From: a phage
Length of the DNA stretch: 64,000 nucleotides
Strand: one strand, 5' to 3'
Sequence record: PZ386953.1
Part shown: positions 4,198-17,830 of the stretch, piece after piece
How the letters are laid out: each line of letters begins with the position of its first letter
Numbering within the stretch: the first letter of the stretch is position 1
Translations under genes and position numbers: made by a program
Notes under the pieces: generated by a model
Told to the model about the DNA's origin: nothing
Databases searched by the model: none
The model's input: only the letters and a program-made list of their open reading frames with translations

Positions 4198-4884
4198 ATG
4201 GCAGAGATTAAGTCGGATGTTAACCACATCCACACTCTGCCAGATTTTGTTCAGGGAGGTCTTGACTACCTGCCTGGAGATTTTCTGGCTGAGAAGGTTA
4301 ATTTAGTCACATTCTTAACCGTGTACCTTAAAAGGTTGGAGGATGTTGATAAGATGCTGGTAGGTTTGGCTGAAGGAAGATTGCTTAATAATGCCAGCGG
4401 AAGATACCTTGACGAAGTTGGTAATCAACTCGGTATTCTTAGGAATGGACTTTCAGATGCTGATTTTCGTGCCACACTAATTATTCAGCAGGCCGCAGCA
4501 TCAAGGGGCGGGACTCGCGAAGATGTCATCTCCACCTTGCGACAATTGTTCGGAAGAAACAATTTCGATACGTGGAAAGGAGACAACTTCAGGTTTGACA
4601 TAAATATTAGAAAAACTTGCTTTGACATATTGCAGTCTATTGATCAGATCTTAGACATGCTACCACTGCCTTGTCATTTGCGTCTTACAGAATCGCAAGG
4701 GCAAGCTTTTGGTTTTGAAGGTGACTCTACAGCTCTTGGCTTCGGATCAGTGTGGGAAGAAAACCAATTCGGAGTTGGTGGGCTGGCTACTTTGCTGTAT
4801 GTTCCTGACGTAAGACCTGATTGGGACACCACAACCATTTATTGTGAAAGTATTACAGTAAACGCAACTAGACAGGAGGGTTAA
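4198..4884 (+). CDS. hypothetical structural protein
   Basis: 228-aa ORF tightly packed in the structural operon. Confidence 0.4.
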   Translation: MAEIKSDVNHIHTLPDFVQGGLDYLPGDFLAEKVNLVTFLTVYLKRLEDVDKMLVGLAEGRLLNNASGRYLDEVGNQLGILRNGLSDADFRATLIIQQAAASRGGTREDVISTLRQLFGRNNFDTWKGDNFRFDINIRKTCFDILQSIDQILDMLPLPCHLRLTESQGQAFGFEGDSTALGFGSVWEENQFGVGGLATLLYVPDVRPDWDTTTIYCESITVNATRQEG

Positions 4885-6956
4885 TGGCAACAGCTGTTTT
4901 TAAACCTTACCGTGATTACTCTACAATGGCTGCACGGTTTCATTACCGCACAGTTCAGGATACTGCCGTTCCTGGTAGGGATTATGATCATGTTGAGGGC
5001 GATATAACTATCCCAGTTGGGGCAACCAGTATTGAAATCCCAGTGGAAATTGTTGACAAATTACCCAACAGGTTACCAAGAAGCTTCTTTATGGAGTTTT
5101 CATCAAAATCTCAAGGGGTGATGATTGGGACACAAAGGGCGAAATGTACAATAGTTTCAGATGAGAATCTTGACAGAATATCTTGGGATACTGTCGAGGA
5201 GAGAATGTTTCACCCAAGATATTGGGTTACAACCACTCAGCAGACTGAAAGTACCTGTATTGTTGCAGATGACAACTGTTGTATTAACCGTTTAGTGTCA
5301 AGAACATATGGAGGTATGGCTGGGTGCATTTGGGAAACAGTTGACAAGTATGACCATTTCGGTATTGGGTTTGATGATCACTATGAGATGAGAAACACCA
5401 AGCTTTGGTTCAGAATGTCAATAACCAATGCCAGCAACTTCTCCACTCCTGAAAAGATGATTATGACTGTAGACCTTGTTGATGGTACAATCATCTATGT
5501 TCCTTTAGCTCAATATGCTGTCAGCATCTCAGAGGATAAGAATGTTGCAGAGATTCATATTGATTTCGAGGACTGCGTCGGGATGGATCAGAACAACAAC
5601 ATGATGGGTGTTGATCCTCGACAGGTGAGAAGAATTTTAATACCGCTCATGCCTAAAGACTGGGTAAGTAATAGCACAGACCCGAGAACGGAAAATGTAG
5701 AGTGTGAGTTGCGCCTAGATCTGCTTCAGCCAGACACGGGCTGGAAAATGATGCAACTTAACAATATTCAGGTTAAAGAGCACGACGTTGGGATCTGCAC
5801 CGCATATGACGATATGTGGAACGTATCTCCTTTAAGGGTGTTGAACAATATCAAGCGTCTGGGCTATACCGGAACCATAAACCATTATGTTGGTATGAGT
5901 CATTATTATGACTACACATGGTCAGGAACCCAATGGTCTATAAACAGAACAGGAGCGCTAAACGCTGCAGCTTATAAATGGCATGATGATTTTATGTACA
6001 ATGCCAAACGACATAACTTCGACGTTATGCAATCTGTAAGTTTTGAGCTTTTCAGCGATGCCTGCCCGTTGGAATGGACCCAAAGAGACTGGAACGATAA
6101 CTACGCTAAAACAGGGTATACACCTTGTAGCTACCTCCTGTCTCCAACCATTGAAGAGGGTATGAATTTCCTTACTGCAGTATTTAAGAATTTTGCATCA
6201 GCCGCTATGAGAAACAACCTGCCAGTGATTATGCAGGTTGGTGAACCGTGGTGGTGGTACAATACCGATACTCGTAGACCTTGTATTTATGATTACCCTA
6301 CAAAACAGGCGTTTTATGATGAGACAGGCGAGTATGCCTTAGATATTGGGACTATTGACGATCCTAAAACTGGAGGTGTTTACGACAAGTATGTAGCATT
6401 TTGTCGTGGTAAGCTTGGCGCTCGTATTGCGGCTATTTCAAAGGCAATAAAGGCACACGCTGCATCAGCTCAGATGACAGCTCTGCTGTTTTTCCCAACC
6501 ATTATGGAAACCGAGCTTACGCAAAAGCTTAACCTTGCTGACCAATATAAAAAAGAAGCAGGCGCTCTTGATTTCTTCTGCACTGAGTGCTACGATTGGG
6601 TGATGCAGGGAGGTATTGAAAAGGCAAAAGAGTCTGTAAACATACCTATCGTTAAGTTAGGTTGGCAACCGTCTGAAATACAATACCTTGCAGGGTTCGT
6701 TCCTAGTAAAGAGCTTGCTCCGGTATATGGATACGACCCAACTAGGAATTACCAAGAATTTTTATGGAGATGTATTTGCGGAAACATGGCAACTATAGAG
6801 TATAGATACCCTGAGGTAAAACAGTATGTGTGGGCATACCCGCAAGTAATGTCTGACAGCATCACTGTTACCGCTAGAGATTCTACCGTGCTTCATATGG
6901 GGCAGGTTGCTCTGAAAGGGTATGTAGAAGATGTTGTCCCGCCAGACTTCTCATAA
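4884..6956 (+). CDS. hypothetical structural protein
   Basis: 690-aa ORF; TAATG stop-start overlap with upstream gene; AGGAGGG RBS. Confidence 0.4.
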   Translation: MATAVFKPYRDYSTMAARFHYRTVQDTAVPGRDYDHVEGDITIPVGATSIEIPVEIVDKLPNRLPRSFFMEFSSKSQGVMIGTQRAKCTIVSDENLDRISWDTVEERMFHPRYWVTTTQQTESTCIVADDNCCINRLVSRTYGGMAGCIWETVDKYDHFGIGFDDHYEMRNTKLWFRMSITNASNFSTPEKMIMTVDLVDGTIIYVPLAQYAVSISEDKNVAEIHIDFEDCVGMDQNNNMMGVDPRQVRRILIPLMPKDWVSNSTDPRTENVECELRLDLLQPDTGWKMMQLNNIQVKEHDVGICTAYDDMWNVSPLRVLNNIKRLGYTGTINHYVGMSHYYDYTWSGTQWSINRTGALNAAAYKWHDDFMYNAKRHNFDVMQSVSFELFSDACPLEWTQRDWNDNYAKTGYTPCSYLLSPTIEEGMNFLTAVFKNFASAAMRNNLPVIMQVGEPWWWYNTDTRRPCIYDYPTKQAFYDETGEYALDIGTIDDPKTGGVYDKYVAFCRGKLGARIAAISKAIKAHAASAQMTALLFFPTIMETELTQKLNLADQYKKEAGALDFFCTECYDWVMQGGIEKAKESVNIPIVKLGWQPSEIQYLAGFVPSKELAPVYGYDPTRNYQEFLWRCICGNMATIEYRYPEVKQYVWAYPQVMSDSITVTARDSTVLHMGQVALKGYVEDVVPPDFS

Positions 6957-10354: not shown

Positions 10355-12100
10355 ATGGCGCAAGACATGACAAGCTTTGAGCAGGCGGTAGATCAAGTAA
10401 TTGTTGATTCTGAACGTTTGCACCTGATTGTCAACGGTAACGCTGTGGATGAGGTTGTCGTAGAGGATGGGACCACCATCCCTACGGTACGAAAAGCCAT
10501 GCTTGACACCCTTTATTTTAAAACGCCGCCGATCCCTTGGGCGTATGGTGCATCCACAACAGTTTTTAACCAGCTATATGAGTTTAAAGGGGACACAGGG
10601 CCCCAGTGGTGGTACGCTCCCGCAGCATCAAAATCTAACCCGGTTAGAATGCCAGCAGATCCTTCACAATCCCCAAACTGGAGATTATATACTGACTCTG
10701 CAGTAATGGCAAAATACTATGCAAAACTTAACAGCCCAAGGTTCGAAGGTGACCCGCGAGTACCTACACCTCCAATGGACGATAAGTCAGAGTCTATAGC
10801 AAACACAGAGTTTGTTGTTGACTATGTTGATAGTATATTTAAAGCCATGGAGGGGATGAAAGTTACTGTAGGATCTTTGGTGGTGAAAGGTCTTACAGAA
10901 CTCGCTAACACCATAGTTGGTGGCACCCTTACCTTACATGGACCTGTTAATGGGGCAGATTCTACTGCACGCTTTAGGAATCTAATCCTCACGGCAAATA
11001 CTTCTACACTTACTTTTGCGTGGAGCGATCCTAAGCATGCAGACTGGAGAAGTACAGAGCTGCAACCTCATGAAGTGTCCACCCACAGGGTTATAGCTGA
11101 CACTATAACTTCTGGGAAACCAGTGGCTAATAATAACGATGTACATTTTGATGGTCTGGGTAATAACTTTTTTGACTACGTGTACATTCGTGGTAATGCC
11201 ATGAAGGCAGCAACCGAACCGACATTGCAGGTCGATGGGACCACCAGGGTTAAGAACCTTGAGGTGACAGGTACCGTTACAGGGATAACCTACTCTGTTG
11301 ATGGCACCATGATCTACCCTAGCTATATTGAAAGCACGGGCGATGCATTGATAAACGGCGATTTGGAGGTTGGCGGGTCTGTAGTTATCCGAGGTACAGC
11401 CTCTATCCAAAATATAGCTCTGAATACTTTAAGAGTCAATGAGCGTGCAACTTTTGAAGGAGAAGGGCTTACAGCCAATAAAGGTACAATTACTGAGCTG
11501 ACCACCACCACTTTAACTGCAACAACTGCAAACTCTGAAAACTGCAACATTACCAGAAACTTGCAGGTAAATGGAGATGTTAGTTTAAACGCCGCAGGGA
11601 CTGGCACCACCTACCTTCACAATCTTGAAATATCCGGCACAGTGACCGGATGGCTGCCAGACTTCTCTAATGTCAACTTTGTCTGTAATGGTATTAACTC
11701 CAGTGGTAAGATAACCACCTCTCAAGAAATTGAGGCTGGTAAAACCATCACTGCCCCTACTTTCCACGCAGGGAAGGTAGATTTCGATTTAGAGGAGGTT
11801 GACGCGTCCAGTGGGACATGGACACCTAACGGGCAGGCCAGTATGTATGTTGTCCACGCTAAAGGGGATTTTACAATAGGGCAGTGGCCTGGGACATCAG
11901 CGGAAGATAAACCTTATCCATTTACTGCGGTTATCTATGTAATTCAGGATGCTGTAGGTCACAACGTGACTTTGCACGATAAGTATGCTATCCTGTCGGC
12001 AACACCTGTTATTAACAACAAGGCTAACAGTGTTACCTTGCTGCAATTAACGTATTGTGGTGTTGGTGATATCGTAGATGTAGTAATTGCACAACGTTAA
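10355..12100 (+). CDS. tail fibre / tailspike-like protein
   Basis: 581 aa, G/T/N-rich repetitive beta-type sequence; AAGGAGA RBS; terminator follows. Confidence 0.45.
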   Translation: MAQDMTSFEQAVDQVIVDSERLHLIVNGNAVDEVVVEDGTTIPTVRKAMLDTLYFKTPPIPWAYGASTTVFNQLYEFKGDTGPQWWYAPAASKSNPVRMPADPSQSPNWRLYTDSAVMAKYYAKLNSPRFEGDPRVPTPPMDDKSESIANTEFVVDYVDSIFKAMEGMKVTVGSLVVKGLTELANTIVGGTLTLHGPVNGADSTARFRNLILTANTSTLTFAWSDPKHADWRSTELQPHEVSTHRVIADTITSGKPVANNNDVHFDGLGNNFFDYVYIRGNAMKAATEPTLQVDGTTRVKNLEVTGTVTGITYSVDGTMIYPSYIESTGDALINGDLEVGGSVVIRGTASIQNIALNTLRVNERATFEGEGLTANKGTITELTTTTLTATTANSENCNITRNLQVNGDVSLNAAGTGTTYLHNLEISGTVTGWLPDFSNVNFVCNGINSSGKITTSQEIEAGKTITAPTFHAGKVDFDLEEVDASSGTWTPNGQASMYVVHAKGDFTIGQWPGTSAEDKPYPFTAVIYVIQDAVGHNVTLHDKYAILSATPVINNKANSVTLLQLTYCGVGDIVDVVIAQR

Positions 12101-12107
12101 TATATCT

Positions 12108-12136
12108 AACCGCTCCTGACGGGGCGGTTTTCTTAT
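12108..12136 (+). terminator. intrinsic terminator
   Basis: AACCGCTCC-TGAC-GGGGCGGTT hairpin then TTCTTATC. Confidence 0.6.
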
Positions 12137-12148
12137 CTGGAGAACACA

Positions 12149-15100
12149 ATGCTTCCAATCCCTTTGCTAAAACTTGGTCGTCATTTCCTCGATAAGAGGG
12201 GTGGAATTAAGGAACTTGCTGTTCTGTCATACCCAATAGACAACAGTGATGGTACAAGCAATACAGTATCCTATGTAAATAGCTTAGCTATACTTTTTGA
12301 TGATGGTCAGCTTAATATTACTGGTTATAATAGGTTCGGAGAGTGTCGGACTGGAGATCTTGATACAATAAACTATCCTAATGAGGCAGCTTGGAACGTA
12401 GACCATGTTTGGAGAGCTGACCGTGCATTTGTAATCCGCACATTCGATAATAAATTTTTCTATATTGGTTGCACAGCTGGTCTTATCGGATCGGAGGCAG
12501 CAGGTGGAAACGATGTTTGTGTCAGAGAGTGGACACCTTTGCCGGAACAGATCGTAACAGGGTTGCATTTGGACACCCATCCTGAGAGACTTGTTGAAGT
12601 AATGGGTGGCGTAAACAATACAGTGTGGGTAATTGCTGCACCAGAGGCTGATGGTATGCTTCACCTGTACGGCTCTGGCAATAATACTTACGGCTCTCTT
12701 CATGTTGACAAAAATCAACACGCTACTCCAGTTAAGATTGGTGAAACATCTGAAAGTCCAGAGACAGGTCCTTGGAAAAACCCAAGAATTAATTGTGAAG
12801 TTCATGACAACTCGGTTATTTTTGGTGGTCCTAACGGATTCTGGATTGCAGGTTACGATTTCTTAAGAAATAACAGCAAAAACACACTAATTTATCCAGC
12901 CGAGCATGCGACTCTTGACCAGTTTAAAGGCATCTCGGTGGGCGAGACATGGAAAGGGTTTATGTGTGGACCTAATGGTGCAATTATAGCCACAGAAAGG
13001 ATGCACAAACCTGATGACCAACAGCTTGTTAATGTGTTTTATGGTCAGGATGTTTGGGGTGACGACACGTGGAGAAGCCTTAACATCACCTATACCCATG
13101 AAGTAATTATGGCTCGCGGGTACGGGACTAGTGGAATTTTCTTCAATAATGGTACAAAACAGTACCGTGGTTTCTCCAGAAACCTGTGTAACGATATTGG
13201 TGCTCAATCTGCTAATAATAATCCTAGGGCCAATTTTATTCATTACAGAGCGCTGGCAACAGCTAAGTTTGTTGAACAGACAGAGCCAGTAAGCTGGACA
13301 GAAAGCGTTTATTTTCAAGGGATCCACAGGGAAGGTTTCTTAGGCACATTCTGTGTGGTAAATGGAAAGCTTTGGTGGTCAGGTATCCCAAGGGGCAGTT
13401 TTTCAGGCTCTAATAACCTGTTCGGCGGCAGACTTAACAGCCAAGGGTTCACAGAGATTCCTGAGAATTGGTATAAAAATGTTCCGGTAGATAGCTGGAG
13501 TATCGAAGACATCTTTGATGTCAATGGTGTAAGCAGTGTTAGCAATATATACATTGGCGACACTGTCAAAATGAAGTTGAAACCTCAACCGGAGGGTGCT
13601 ACGTTCATTATTGACAAGATTGAGCTCGTGAACGCTGCAGGTACTGTTGTTACAGATGCAAACTATCAGTTCTCTACTAGCTGGAACCATGGCGGTGCTA
13701 ACGAGGTTGTGGTTACCCAGCATAACCGTAACATCAACAGACGCGGTCTGTATTCTGTCAAGATCACCTATCATGATAAACATGGCGCTGGAAGAACCCA
13801 CACCACACGAAACTTAAACTGGAACATTGTAGTTCCTGCATATCCGTCAGACGGCAAATGGCACACTGTTGGCAGGAAGAAACAGTTCCATGTAAACGAT
13901 ACTGTATACTTTGGGCTTAACGGCTCTCAGCCTGCTCCAGAAAGCGATACAGCATATATGGTTAGGCTTCACAGGCAAGATGCCGGATCTACCACGTATG
14001 ATGTGACCCAGGAGATCTACGACCAGAGACGCAGTATCTATGACAATCTTGTGAAAACACAAGCCTTGTGGGAGTTCAACCCTAACGGCAAAGGCGGGAA
14101 GATGCTGCAGGTTAACGAGCAGAACGGAACATCGTTAACAGTGCACGAGCATGCTGATCCATGGCCTGATCCTGGTAAGCCTAACCCAGGTGCTCGCACA
14201 CTGAAAGTTGTTAGCCACAACGCAGGGTATTTCGGGATACGTTGGGAAGCTACAGTAAAATATGTTGATGGAACAACAAACAATATAGGTATTACTCTGG
14301 GTGGTACCAGTGAAGATAGTTCTCTGAAAATTGCCTACACCCCTAGAGGCATCTCTATTGACAATATGGATATAGTTCGTAACGGTTACGGTGATGTAAA
14401 CATCAAAGTTACCCTCGGTGAACATCTTGGTGGAGAAAGGATCATCATGTATGCCTTTGACCATGATCCTCGCACCAATGGAACCTATGCAAATCAGGCG
14501 TGGAGTTACCTGATAAATGCACCTGAGCCAAATACTAAAGAGTTTTATTATGGTATGAAGCGCGATGTGTGCAAGAAAACAGGAACACATGACTGGATCG
14601 CTATCTGCGTTAAAGATGAGCGGACAGCTTGGGACGAGCCTGTTAACAGATGGTTCATAGGAATCCCAACCAGAAGTGATAAATATGTCACAGAATATAT
14701 TGTGTGCATGGGCGGCACCAACCTGAACCTGTGTTGGAACGAAGATGCAAACAAATATTCCGATTATGACTATATGAGAGATATCTCTTGTAATCAGTGG
14801 TTTAACCAGACTACAGGTTACCCTCCGCGTCAGGCGAGAGTAAACCCTGCAATCTTCACAGATACGCAGGTTTTCTTGACAAAACAGGCCAACGAGGTTC
14901 AGACCTTCAAGAACAAATACGACCCTAACAAGTGGTTTTATAACTGTTATGGCGCATTTTTCTGGGGTCCGGGGGAACTACCTAACGGGGGATCTTGCTT
15001 CGAGGCTGCAACCTATGGCAGCGACTATATTATGGGGCAAGTCAAGAAATACAAAATGATCCCTGGTCCTGAAACCCTGGGTAATGCTGTTGACCCGTAT

Positions 15101-17785
15101 ATAGTCTTCTCGTCTGTCCATGCAAATATGAACGGAGAGAAGTATCCGTTCGACGTTCCGGTAGCCAATGGATACAGACGTGTCGTGATGATCATTAAGT
15201 GCGACCTGATAGGTAAGCAAGTTCCTGCTGAAAACGGAACATCAACACACCCGTTTGAAATTGCTCTGCACTACCAATTTGCAGATTCTCCTTTTGCAGG
15301 GGATAAGAGAATATCTGATACAGATGCACAGCGTTGTAAGAAGGTATTGTTAGGTGCTGGATGGTGGTGGTATGAGTTTGACTTGACAGACAAACTCACA
15401 GACAACACAAAAACTCTTACAGGTATTCGTCTGGACCTTGGTGAAAACATGCACAAAAGTGTCTGCGATGGCACCTATGGTGATCCTACAGTACACTTGA
15501 AATATGTTTCTCTTGAGCATCCGGAGGAAACTGTTATTGGCCCCAAACTGAGACTGTTTGGCAGCTGGATTGCTAAAGACAGAGTAGGAATGGGTAAAAA
15601 GGTAAGAGGATTCCTGATGGATGCGGGGACAGAAGACATGCTGGTTAATGCAGTGTGGCCTACTCTAGAGGGAACCGACTACAACAATGCTGCAAGATCT
15701 GTCAACTGGTTTAACATCCACAGAGCCATGTGGACTACCAACTGCTATTTGTGGAGAGAGCTTAACGATAATGCCTTCGGCTTCAGCAATGGCAGAAGGA
15801 TGGCTATCATTTGCTGGACAACACTGCAACGTTGCTATGACCACAACTATGAAATAGGTGGTAGAGCGTGGAAAGACACCAGGGATAGAATTGTGTACAA
15901 CTTTGCAGACGACAACGGTGGTGGAGCGTATAACTTCGGCACAAGCAGACTTATCCACTTAAACGGATCCTCGGCCTACAAGAAAGAAGGTTACTCTGGA
16001 TCCATGATTGAGTGGGGTCTGGTAAAAGATGCTCGCGTATTGATGGGCCAACAACTTGCTGCTGCAATAGGTCCTAACGCAGTGCAATCTGTTAAACCAG
16101 CGTGGTTCGATATTCCATTGTGGTCATCCGGCACACCAGGGACTGCTGCAATCAATCCTACCACGGGAGATCTGGAAATCTCTTGGGAAGACTTGAAGCA
16201 GGTTGGGGGCTGGGATAAGACAGGGTATCAGGTGCAGTGGTGGAAATCTGACGGATCGTTAGCAGCTGATGAGTTTGTTAAGGACAATTTCTACACCATG
16301 TCCTCTGCAAAAGCACAGGAATTGTTCGGTCAGGCAACTCCGTCAACGATCACCATGTCCATGTGCTGTAAAGACAACAGGACTGGAGCTTTGGGGCCAA
16401 GGGTTGCTAAGGTTTTCTCAGGTATTAAATGGAATCCCTCTGTTCAAAGTGTTTCATGGAAGCAAATAGGTGATAACAAGCTGCTAGTTACCCCCGCCTG
16501 TCAGTTCAACGCAACTCTTAACGTTGATCCTGCTGCTGCGGCAAACTCAGCTAAAGCTTCTGACTTCTCTGTGTCTAACACTGCTATGGCAGATGTGAGG
16601 AAGATTGACACACTGAACGCCAGAATTACCTGTAAAAACACTTATGGCACATTCCAAATCATCAACAACTTCACAGATGCTGATTCTAAGGTAGTGAGGA
16701 CAGCAAGCCAGACTCTGAGTTTAGGAACTCTGGCCTATGCGGCCCTGATCACCGAACAGTCGGCAACACTCCAAGGAGGTGGTGTAGGCAAGTCCATTAC
16801 AACACCTGTGTGGAAGCCAAATGAGTGGGTTGTGTTTGATTTGACTGTGGACTTCTCCAGCGATAATAACTGGACATGGGTAAGGAATTGCTTGTCACAA
16901 CTGATGGGTGGTCCAAGCTCCGTTAGTGATAGCTACGACTCCACTGACCCGAGTGTGTTTCAGGTGGGTAAAACTCACCCGGAGACTGGAGCAACGTTGC
17001 CTGACAGGAAGTATGCTTTGGTTTGCATCTCTTACGGGAAGGCAGATGTCACCTTCTCAGGGACACACACTTATAACGGAACCTACAACTTCTCAAGGAA
17101 GTATAGTCTCAAAGCAGGGAACATTATAGACGAGGTTGGTGTGCTGTATAATCCGGGCAACGGCATAGGGATTGTGGGTGGTAAACTGCAGATGCAGGAA
17201 CCTTCTATTACCCCTTCCAACGTATCCGGGATTAGAAAGACTTGGGAAAGTAGTAATACCAACATTGCAACAGTGGATGCCACCACAGGACTGGTAACAT
17301 TTAAAGCTACTGGGAATGTCACCATAAAGTTTGTAGTTACAGATGATGCAGGGCGCAAAACGTCTTCAACATCTTTTACTGTCAAACAGATGGCACCACA
17401 GTGGAGAATGTGGATAGGTACAGCAACAAACGGGGCATACCCTAATCCGGCAGGTACTTCTGGTATGAAGACTTTCTCTACAAGCAAACCGATGGAGTAC
17501 GGCAGCGGTCCTAAGGTAGGGCAGATGGTGTACTTTGGTGCGTATATTCCTGAAATTATAGGGCTTCCGAGAAGTCAGCTTCAGTTGCTGTTTGGGGCTG
17601 GTGTTGACGATCTTGCCACTTTCGGGTATAGCGACAACATCGAGGCTGCAAGGAGTTCAGGATGGGTAGGGTTCAGAATGGAGTCTGGAAAGGAAGGCAG
17701 GATTCTAGGGACAGCCTCTATAGGTGTTATGTTCCCTGGTGACCAGCAGTATCGTCTAGAAGCCTACGCAACCTTTTCTCGTTAA
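12149..17785 (+). CDS. giant virion protein with Ig-like segment
   Basis: 1878-aa ORF; Ig-like (Big_2-type) stretch near C-terminus (VTFKATGNVTIKFVVTDDAGRKTS); bidirectional terminator follows. Confidence 0.5.
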   Translation: MLPIPLLKLGRHFLDKRGGIKELAVLSYPIDNSDGTSNTVSYVNSLAILFDDGQLNITGYNRFGECRTGDLDTINYPNEAAWNVDHVWRADRAFVIRTFDNKFFYIGCTAGLIGSEAAGGNDVCVREWTPLPEQIVTGLHLDTHPERLVEVMGGVNNTVWVIAAPEADGMLHLYGSGNNTYGSLHVDKNQHATPVKIGETSESPETGPWKNPRINCEVHDNSVIFGGPNGFWIAGYDFLRNNSKNTLIYPAEHATLDQFKGISVGETWKGFMCGPNGAIIATERMHKPDDQQLVNVFYGQDVWGDDTWRSLNITYTHEVIMARGYGTSGIFFNNGTKQYRGFSRNLCNDIGAQSANNNPRANFIHYRALATAKFVEQTEPVSWTESVYFQGIHREGFLGTFCVVNGKLWWSGIPRGSFSGSNNLFGGRLNSQGFTEIPENWYKNVPVDSWSIEDIFDVNGVSSVSNIYIGDTVKMKLKPQPEGATFIIDKIELVNAAGTVVTDANYQFSTSWNHGGANEVVVTQHNRNINRRGLYSVKITYHDKHGAGRTHTTRNLNWNIVVPAYPSDGKWHTVGRKKQFHVNDTVYFGLNGSQPAPESDTAYMVRLHRQDAGSTTYDVTQEIYDQRRSIYDNLVKTQALWEFNPNGKGGKMLQVNEQNGTSLTVHEHADPWPDPGKPNPGARTLKVVSHNAGYFGIRWEATVKYVDGTTNNIGITLGGTSEDSSLKIAYTPRGISIDNMDIVRNGYGDVNIKVTLGEHLGGERIIMYAFDHDPRTNGTYANQAWSYLINAPEPNTKEFYYGMKRDVCKKTGTHDWIAICVKDERTAWDEPVNRWFIGIPTRSDKYVTEYIVCMGGTNLNLCWNEDANKYSDYDYMRDISCNQWFNQTTGYPPRQARVNPAIFTDTQVFLTKQANEVQTFKNKYDPNKWFYNCYGAFFWGPGELPNGGSCFEAATYGSDYIMGQVKKYKMIPGPETLGNAVDPYIVFSSVHANMNGEKYPFDVPVANGYRRVVMIIKCDLIGKQVPAENGTSTHPFEIALHYQFADSPFAGDKRISDTDAQRCKKVLLGAGWWWYEFDLTDKLTDNTKTLTGIRLDLGENMHKSVCDGTYGDPTVHLKYVSLEHPEETVIGPKLRLFGSWIAKDRVGMGKKVRGFLMDAGTEDMLVNAVWPTLEGTDYNNAARSVNWFNIHRAMWTTNCYLWRELNDNAFGFSNGRRMAIICWTTLQRCYDHNYEIGGRAWKDTRDRIVYNFADDNGGGAYNFGTSRLIHLNGSSAYKKEGYSGSMIEWGLVKDARVLMGQQLAAAIGPNAVQSVKPAWFDIPLWSSGTPGTAAINPTTGDLEISWEDLKQVGGWDKTGYQVQWWKSDGSLAADEFVKDNFYTMSSAKAQELFGQATPSTITMSMCCKDNRTGALGPRVAKVFSGIKWNPSVQSVSWKQIGDNKLLVTPACQFNATLNVDPAAAANSAKASDFSVSNTAMADVRKIDTLNARITCKNTYGTFQIINNFTDADSKVVRTASQTLSLGTLAYAALITEQSATLQGGGVGKSITTPVWKPNEWVVFDLTVDFSSDNNWTWVRNCLSQLMGGPSSVSDSYDSTDPSVFQVGKTHPETGATLPDRKYALVCISYGKADVTFSGTHTYNGTYNFSRKYSLKAGNIIDEVGVLYNPGNGIGIVGGKLQMQEPSITPSNVSGIRKTWESSNTNIATVDATTGLVTFKATGNVTIKFVVTDDAGRKTSSTSFTVKQMAPQWRMWIGTATNGAYPNPAGTSGMKTFSTSKPMEYGSGPKVGQMVYFGAYIPEIIGLPRSQLQLLFGAGVDDLATFGYSDNIEAARSSGWVGFRMESGKEGRILGTASIGVMFPGDQQYRLEAYATFSR

Positions 17786-17794
17786 CAAGGGGGT

Positions 17795-17830
17795 AAATAA
17801 AAAGGGGCCAAACGGCCCCTTTCTTTTTAT
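17795..17830. terminator. bidirectional intrinsic terminator
   Basis: AGGGGCC-AAAC-GGCCCCT hairpin flanked by A-tract and T-tract between convergent genes. Confidence 0.7.

Follow-up and report, generated by a model that had tools for sequence, protein, structure and literature searches.

We analysed a 64,000-nucleotide (nt) stretch of phage DNA (record PZ386953.1, referred to in its entirety as the window) that belongs to a Vequintavirus, an rV5-like myophage, and whose largest open reading frame (ORF) extends from position 12149 to 17785 on the plus strand and encodes a protein of 1878 amino acids (aa), compared to 925 aa for the runner-up in the window. By sequence comparison this giant ORF is the ortholog of gp27 of coliphage rV5 (YP_002003529, ~91% nucleotide identity), described as a conserved hypothetical protein of 1878 aa and 208 kDa with a Big_2 domain. 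The gene, its signals and the domains assigned to its product, including immunoglobulin (Ig)-like ones, are as follows, with AlphaFold2 (AF2) models graded by predicted local distance difference test (pLDDT) and substitution rates given as nonsynonymous (dN) and synonymous (dS):

12108..12137, plus strand: terminator-like GC hairpin with a T-run behind it (from scanning and folding; 9-bp stem, folded intergenic region at -16.7 kcal/mol)
12139..12142, plus strand: ribosome-binding site GGAG, 6 nt 5' of the ATG (direct sequence reading)
12149..17785, plus strand: coding sequence of the 1878-aa protein, rV5 gp27 ortholog (phrog_15684), with ATG start and dN/dS ~0.10
12149..13483, plus strand, aa 1-445: highly conserved RCC1-like N-terminal region, proposed virion-proximal anchor (hhalign, Pfam, PHROG)
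13484..14338, plus strand, aa 446-730: two or three predicted beta-sandwich (Ig/PKD-like) domains (AF2 all-beta, pLDDT ~60-84 at aa 450-560; weak PKD_4 match)
14342..16423, plus strand, aa 732-1425: module akin to N4 gp65 and the phi92-type "tail carbohydrate esterase"
15053..15520, plus strand, aa 969-1124: beta-sandwich inserted in the alpha/beta domain, resembling a carbohydrate-binding module (CBM)
16436..17188, plus strand, aa 1430-1680: variable beta-sandwich domains (AF2 beta domains; Foldseek)
17192..17383, plus strand, aa 1682-1745: Big_2 Ig-like domain ("intimin domain"; Pfam, PDB matches to intimin and Sap Ig domains, AF2 pLDDT 80-93)
17384..17782, plus strand, aa 1746-1878: C-terminal tip domain, allelic among Vequintaviruses (allele counts, dN)
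17801..17822, both strands: bidirectional intrinsic terminator that closes the structural operon (GGGGCC-AAAC-GGCCCC, A-run and T-run flanks, -18.7 kcal/mol)

A preliminary description of this locus, made from the sequence alone, had singled out the ORF as the largest in the window, placed it at the end of the fibre module and of the structural operon, with a bidirectional terminator behind it, and noticed an Ig-like segment near its C-terminus, and each of these observations stood up to closer analysis. The gene is the last of the tail-fibre cluster, here as in relatives, and occupies the position typical of the gp27 family, 3' of a gp28-type fibre gene and 5' of convergent early genes. Its stop codon is separated by 15 nt from the symmetrical 3' hairpin, the GC skew flips sign at ~18 kb, which matches the expectation for a switch in the direction of transcription, and terminators are annotated on both strands at the homologous site of rV5. 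The Ig-like segment corresponds to a Pfam Big_2 match at aa 1682-1733 (33.5 bits, cutoff 22.8), the sole Pfam domain above threshold in the entire protein. Overlooked in the preliminary description was a second terminator-like hairpin directly 5' of the giant gene (12108-12129), located between the stop of the gp28-type fibre gene (12100) and the giant gene and listed as t028 in the rV5 paper. The N-terminal residues MLPIPLLKL are kept in a distant homolog, phAPEC8 gp180 (MFPIPIFTI), which supports the ATG at 12149 as the start.

The segment 12149..17785 is a genuine, strongly conserved gene under purifying selection and no chance ORF. First, dN/dS lies between 0.09 and 0.13 in comparisons with rV5, Bas58 and FFH2, with dS values of 0.4-2.6 over codons 401-1400. 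Second, the full-length reading frame and the gene order are maintained in relatives with as little as 41% identity. A decaying pseudogene is ruled out by the dN/dS of ~0.1. Against the same three phages the gene is a recombination mosaic in which codons 1-400 are near-identical between phages (dS ~0.03), while the final ~180 codons are identical to rV5 and represented by a different allele in FFH2. The window copy does not differ in any essential way from rV5 gp27, being near-identical to it in the N-terminal 400 codons and the tip and diverged at synonymous sites in the middle part, and both rV5 gp27 and Bas58_0041 resemble it in length (1878 aa), position and the bidirectional terminator that follows.

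As a gene, the giant ORF is not new, since it is already catalogued in more than 100 phage genomes. Of the 121 phage records matched by megablast, 108 span 80% or more of the gene, with nucleotide identities of 80-99%, and the gene is entered under names such as "Ig-like domain-containing protein", "structural protein with Ig domain" or, in BASEL, "lateral tail fiber protein with intimin domain". The protein matches its own PHROG family, phrog_15684, over residues 1-1878 of 1878 (E 0). This family is narrow, comprising 15 clusters at 41-91% identity, the most distant of which retains the same gene order. Word-indexed homolog searches were of little use for deeper alignments, the full-length query recovering only those 15 clusters and searches with the N-terminal 460 aa or with phi92 gp153 recovering fragments only. 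We found no functional study of gp27 in the literature. The BASEL paper treats it as the last large lateral tail fibre gene, with moderate allelic variation.

The preliminary description had also found no motif of a tape-measure protein, RNA polymerase or known depolymerase, and our searches likewise turned up no such motif and no clear full-length homology to a characterised family. In PHROGs only the own family matches at full length, PDB sequence searches with the single sequence and with the family profile returned only Ig-domain matches or noise (intimin, Sap S-layer protein), and an exhaustive phmmer search of aa 441-1640 against 1.84 billion representative proteins returned the own family only. 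Searches of Pfam, PHROG, PDB and NCBIfam revealed no tape-measure, RNA-polymerase or beta-helix depolymerase signature, and a beta-helix depolymerase was rejected as a reading. The large size of the protein is the only feature that speaks for an internal virion protein of the tape-measure, ejection or virion RNA-polymerase type, an explanation that we regard as exceedingly improbable: the tape-measure/minor tail protein has a gene of its own (rV5 gp49), and the giant protein is beta-rich and carries Ig-like domains without any polymerase or tape-measure match, a domain content that effectively refutes this explanation.

Conservation within the family is highest at aa 1-445 (~75% of residues identical to the query in the family alignment). 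In hhalign comparisons aa 1-491 matched phAPEC8 gp180 (Prob 99.6, E 1e-24; 39% identity over aa 1-207), and a weaker relationship exists between this region and the 595-aa tail protein of Seunavirus. The phAPEC8 protein itself has Pfam RCC1 (24.0, cutoff 21.7) and WD40_RLD (6e-11) matches, and the giant protein matches phrog_4219, "regulator of chromosome condensation", at 2.5e-8. It also gives a sub-threshold match to WD40_RLD (2e-4, 21 bits versus a cutoff of 150), weak matches to which recur in 12 of the 16 family members, and to RCC1_2 (13.7 bits, cutoff 22). On the basis of the gp180 homology and the phrog_4219 and WD40_RLD matches we call this region RCC1-like; the same profile matches suggest that it is probably a beta-propeller. 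A comparison of the N-terminal profile with itself detected no internal or blade repeats. RCC1-domain proteins have been detected in virions of related Vequintavirinae.

Beyond this region, domain analysis of the protein revealed at least nine beta-sandwich domains. AF2 was run on two halves of the protein from 16-sequence alignments (mean pLDDT 51 and 53), and at aa 1430-1680 Foldseek retrieved strings of Ig-like domains, for example in the Sap S-layer protein, cadherins and NUP210. Further structural matches of the giant protein were to phage Ig-bearing tail proteins and to CBMs, and to neither a beta-helix nor a coiled coil. The C-terminal 280 aa, comprising Big_2 and tip, match phrog_215, "structural protein with Ig domain" (E 2e-41). 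The database label "intimin domain" means simply Big_2: the protein shares one such domain (aa 1682-1745) with the intimin/invasin adhesins but has neither their beta-barrel anchor nor their C-type lectin tip. An intimin-type adhesin was rejected; NCBIfam aligned a single intimin Ig repeat at 22.5 bits versus the cutoff of 1400 for full-length intimin (NF033627).

These results bear on the BASEL designation as a lateral tail fibre protein, which implies a homotrimer of the classical fibre or tailspike type. The location in the fibre cluster and the database label agree with it, as does the combination of a conserved N-terminus with a variable C-terminus that is typical of fibres. By contrast, coiled coils, collagen repeats, triple beta-helices, Peptidase_S74 and fibre-tip domains gave no Pfam, PHROG or NCBIfam match in the giant protein, whereas neighbouring and phi92 fibre genes have such domains, and in structure searches the giant protein resembles Ig-like domains strung along a single chain, as well as the non-trimeric N4 gp65. 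We therefore consider a trimeric architecture very unlikely.

The central part of the protein (aa 732-1425) can be read as a SASA-like alpha/beta domain, interrupted by an insertion, with an Ig/FN3-like domain before it and an FN3-like domain after it; the SASA-like and FN3-like parts lie at aa ~838-1425. Residues 1218-1419 match phi92 gp153 (25% identity, 41 bits) as well as the 719-aa protein of phage ALITA and Av-05 gp106, and phi92 gp153 matches N4 gp65 (E 1e-24). Direct hhalign of the family profile with N4 gp65 as a single sequence fell short of significance, so the link had to be made through gp153-type modules. We built a bridging alignment from the module of eight phage proteins and scored the family profile against it with hhalign, using column-shuffled nulls:

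aa 730-1440, whole region: score 58 (Prob 89.7), E 1.8e-6; top null 26.9 (30 shuffles)
aa 838-866: score 31.9, E 0.0015; top null 16.9
aa ~1147-1322: score 36.2, E 0.00028; top null 22.2
aa ~1338-1421: score 28.4, E 0.0016; top null 18.9

These scores indicate that the central module is a remote homolog of the phi92-type "tail carbohydrate esterase" and of the N4 gp65 module, and the order of the C-terminal modules of gp65-type proteins, SASA-like alpha/beta followed by FN3-like, is found in the giant protein. N4 gp65 (PDB 9lc0, 9yf4; non-contractile tail sheath/receptor-binding protein) is a receptor-binding protein of 10 domains that assembles as a gp64-gp65 heterodimer with six-fold arrangement around the tail and is no trimeric fibre. 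It lacks the RCC1-like N-terminus and the long Ig tail of the giant protein, and it belongs to a podovirus, in which gp65 pairs with gp64, whereas the window phage is a myophage. The phi92-type esterase (ALITA WWP17711, 719 aa) and Av-05 gp106 share the SASA-like/FN3-like module and Big_2 domains with the giant protein but have no RCC1-like N-terminus, inserted sandwich or most of the Ig arm. The other domains of gp65, NCTSP_N (PF23844) and TIM-barrel_NCTSP (PF23845), gave no match in the giant protein at E <= 10; both are carried by the rV5 gp34-type fibre gene of the window (4884-6956, plus strand; E 4e-80). By these profile matches, N4 gp65-like parts are distributed over two genes of the window phage, 4884..6956 and the giant gene.

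The relationship with a carbohydrate esterase raises the possibility that the protein is an active tail-borne esterase or deacetylase, which would modify O-antigen, capsule, enterobacterial common antigen (ECA) or an NGR-type glycan so that the virion approaches the cell surface, as the esterase fibres of G7C and N4 type are thought to do. Besides the remote homology of the module to the SASA-like domain of the phi92-type protein, this explanation draws on the residues at the three SASA blocks, which are invariant in the family (G855 G856 T857 N858; G1160 E1162 D1163; S1285 M1286 I1287 E1288 W1289 G1290), a conservation that suggests a functional site. However, the catalytic positions themselves are altered: in a remote alignment of uncertain register, GQSN of block I is replaced by GGTN, with Thr857 at the position of the nucleophilic Ser, followed by GTED and, in block V, by Glu1288 in place of the catalytic His (SMIEWG). 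These substitutions make canonical serine-esterase chemistry unlikely, though a conserved site exists. Similarly, Pfam SASA, SGNH and Lipase_GDSL matched neither the giant protein nor the 16 family members at a limit as loose as E <= 10, whereas phi92-type proteins show weak SASA matches and retain a recognisable QGEND block (WGQGEND). The phi92-type proteins (with Asp) and the second copy in N4 gp65 are likewise without the Ser, support for block I comes from a match of 29 columns, and AF2 did not confidently predict the fold of the region. On these grounds we judge an active esterase unlikely. The proposal of the preliminary description, a large receptor-binding or enzymatic tail protein, is thus supported in part: the ortholog was found in rV5 virions, receptor binding would be a candidate role, and the enzymatic option draws no support from the only enzyme-like module, a remote relative of SASA/SGNH-type esterase domains with Thr857 and Glu1288 at the catalytic positions.

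The most variable part of the protein in the family alignment is aa 1430-1878, in which aa 1430-1680 show 22-48% identity to the query per 40-residue window and Vequintaviruses carry one or the other of two alleles of the last 209 aa, with >=95% identity in 74 records and 60-80% in 37. At the C-terminal tip dN is ~0.2 versus the FFH2 allele. The combination of a conserved N-terminus with an allelic C-terminal tip supports the notion, drawn from these alignments, that the protein follows the variation pattern of a host-recognition appendage.

This variation is relevant to another explanation, by which the protein would be an Ig-rich, Hoc-like decoration or environment-adherence fibre on head, neck or tail, possibly binding mucus or glycans, that improves persistence in the gut and has no receptor role. 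The many Ig-like domains would fit, PHROGs files phrog_215, matched by the C-terminal 280 aa, under head and packaging, and the gene appears split in at least one isolate grown on K-12. Ig-like domains on phage particles are widely taken to be accessory (Fraser et al. 2006; Barr et al. 2013). On the other hand, the gene lies within the tail-fibre cluster in every lineage examined, its central module is common to tail receptor-binding proteins such as N4 gp65, and the allelic tip resembles host-driven variation, so that we regard a decoration role as quite improbable.

The K-12 isolate concerned is phage ime (MN850576, 393-6027), in which a 2-nt deletion at codons 1052-1053 leaves two ORFs, 1055 and 829 aa long, in place of the gene. 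For V18 and APECc02, BFVD catalogues fragments of the gene, and other records hold pieces of 141-396 aa. Such split or fragmentary records stem either from a genuine loss on laboratory hosts or from errors in sequencing.

A comparison of gene clusters showed that the position at the end of the tail-fibre cluster, to which we refer as the slot, is taken by a modular protein of the gp27 kind in all six lineages examined, each slot protein sharing with the giant protein either the N-terminal region or the central module:

Vequintavirus: 1878 aa
Relative at 41% identity: 1976 aa
Phapecoctavirus: 891 aa (phAPEC8 gp180)
Seunavirus: 595 aa, "tail protein"
Avunavirus: 647 aa (Av-05 gp106)
Justusliebigvirus: 719 aa; split in phi92 as gp152 and gp153

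The slot proteins of phAPEC8 (gp180, 891 aa) and of Seunavirus (PVP-SE1 gp40-type) have a homologous N-terminus followed by Big_2 domains, but are less than half the size of the giant protein, and no esterase-like module was detected in them. The phi92-type esterase and Av-05 gp106 occupy the same slot directly 3' of a terminator-like hairpin. In phi92 (13321-14983), gp152, with two Big_2 domains, and gp153 are the two ends of what is one protein of 655-719 aa in relatives (phrog_32204); the phi92 annotation itself states that gp153 has no ribosome-binding site, and the gene may be split or mis-annotated. The gp152/gp153 gene is absent from the fibre candidates of the 2026 phi92 cryo-EM paper.

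In each of the six lineages a GC-rich hairpin with a trailing T-run stands 3' of the last fibre gene before the slot and 5' of the ribosome-binding site; the stems are unrelated in sequence between lineages (locus handles L are those of our comparison):

Window: 12108-12137
L011 (rV5)
L001 (Bas58)
L014: 7960-8004
L002: 11955-12004
L006: 4838-4888
L015: 5950-6004
L005: 1454-1502
L003 (phi92): 13276-13324

Hairpins at the same position with unrelated stems suggest a conserved attenuation of the slot. We infer from this arrangement that expression of the slot relies on terminator read-through and is reduced in dose, which would fit the low spectral count of gp27 in rV5 virions, where mass spectrometry recorded 3 peptides and 9 spectra at 3.1% coverage. 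These spectra are weak but direct evidence that gp27 is associated with the virion.

Taking together the orthology with rV5 gp27, the position at the cluster end, the detection in virions, the related slot proteins, the variation of the tip and the six-lineage hairpin, we favour, by a modest measure of confidence, the view that the giant protein is an accessory adhesin, associated with the virion in low copy and made of globular domains in a chain, unlike a classical trimeric fibre, that serves as an N-terminally anchored glycan-binding tail appendage. A single-chain arm is proposed because of the analogy with N4 gp65, the conserved N-terminus and the allelic tip. The conserved RCC1-like N-terminal region would dock the protein on the baseplate or the fibre network, and the run of Ig/FN3-like beta-sandwiches could form an extended flexible arm, for which ~12 domains of 4-5 nm each give, by our own arithmetic, ~50-70 nm. 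The central module with its inserted CBM-like sandwich, the Big_2 domain and the tip may contact surface glycans, such contact aiding host recognition or retention on the cell, while the upstream hairpin would keep the dose low by making expression depend on read-through. The rV5 paper mentions thin 70 nm fibres that were occasionally seen, a length similar to that of a ~12-domain chain.

Several observations weigh against such an adhesin. First, the coverage of gp27 in the rV5 spectra is thin (3.1%), we found no experiment in the literature that ties gp27 to adsorption, and a genetic study of phage LL12 left the giant protein out of its fibre count. Second, the split in ime and the fragments in V18 and APECc02 imply that the full-length protein may be dispensable on laboratory K-12. 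Third, the RCC1 assignment of the giant protein is sub-threshold in Pfam and comes without detected repeats, and the slot proteins of phi92 and Av-05 have no N-terminal region, which argues against a universal anchor. Finally, AF2 modelled the protein poorly on the whole and gave no confident fold for the N-terminal and alpha/beta regions, for which we claim none.

A more far-reaching version of the adhesin hypothesis, which we consider speculative and on the unlikely side, holds that the giant protein is to this myovirus what the receptor-binding arm gp65 is to N4: a single-chain fibre of ~50-70 nm, attached to the baseplate via an RCC1-like propeller, that would explain the thin ~70 nm fibres of rV5, while proteins of the slot would explain fibre density such as phi92 fibre II, with the SASA-like domain representing an esterase fold re-purposed for glycan binding (Thr and Glu at the former catalytic positions) and the dose set by conserved terminator read-through. 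Candidates picked for fibre- or spike-like architecture failed to fit the density of phi92 fibre II, which is unassigned, and the BASEL paper finds it unclear which tail genes of rV5-like phages build which fibre. The largest protein of the cluster, being non-fibre-like, related to N4 gp65 and equipped with an allelic tip, is a concrete candidate for an uncharacterised appendage. Our analysis adds a domain map, a remote relationship with N4 gp65 and esterase-type modules in which the site residues are non-canonical, the idea of one slot shared by several lineages, and a conserved hairpin 5' of that slot, the last a case of possible dose control within a late operon in view of its presence before the slot in six lineages. 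The tip domain and the Thr857/Glu1288 site offer targets for host-range engineering. Phages of the rV5 type are among the most frequently isolated coliphages and are components of therapy and biocontrol cocktails.

Some minor observations concern the neighbourhood of the gene and its database records. The upstream gp28-type gene (window 10355-12100, plus strand; 581 aa) matches the tail-fibre PHROGs 4549 and 15437, and its homolog in locus L014 carries Pfam Phage_phiTE_241_N and _C. The fibre called "gp27" in the LL12 paper appears to be such a gp28-type gene rather than the giant gene. In FFH2 (6014-6399) a gap of ~385 nt separates the giant gene from the upstream fibre gene, compared to 48 nt in the window. 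The best nucleotide matches of the giant gene include ~15 MG0656xx records labelled as Campylobacter phages with Campylobacter jejuni as host; as these genomes are rV5-like or phi92-like coliphages, the host labels look doubtful.

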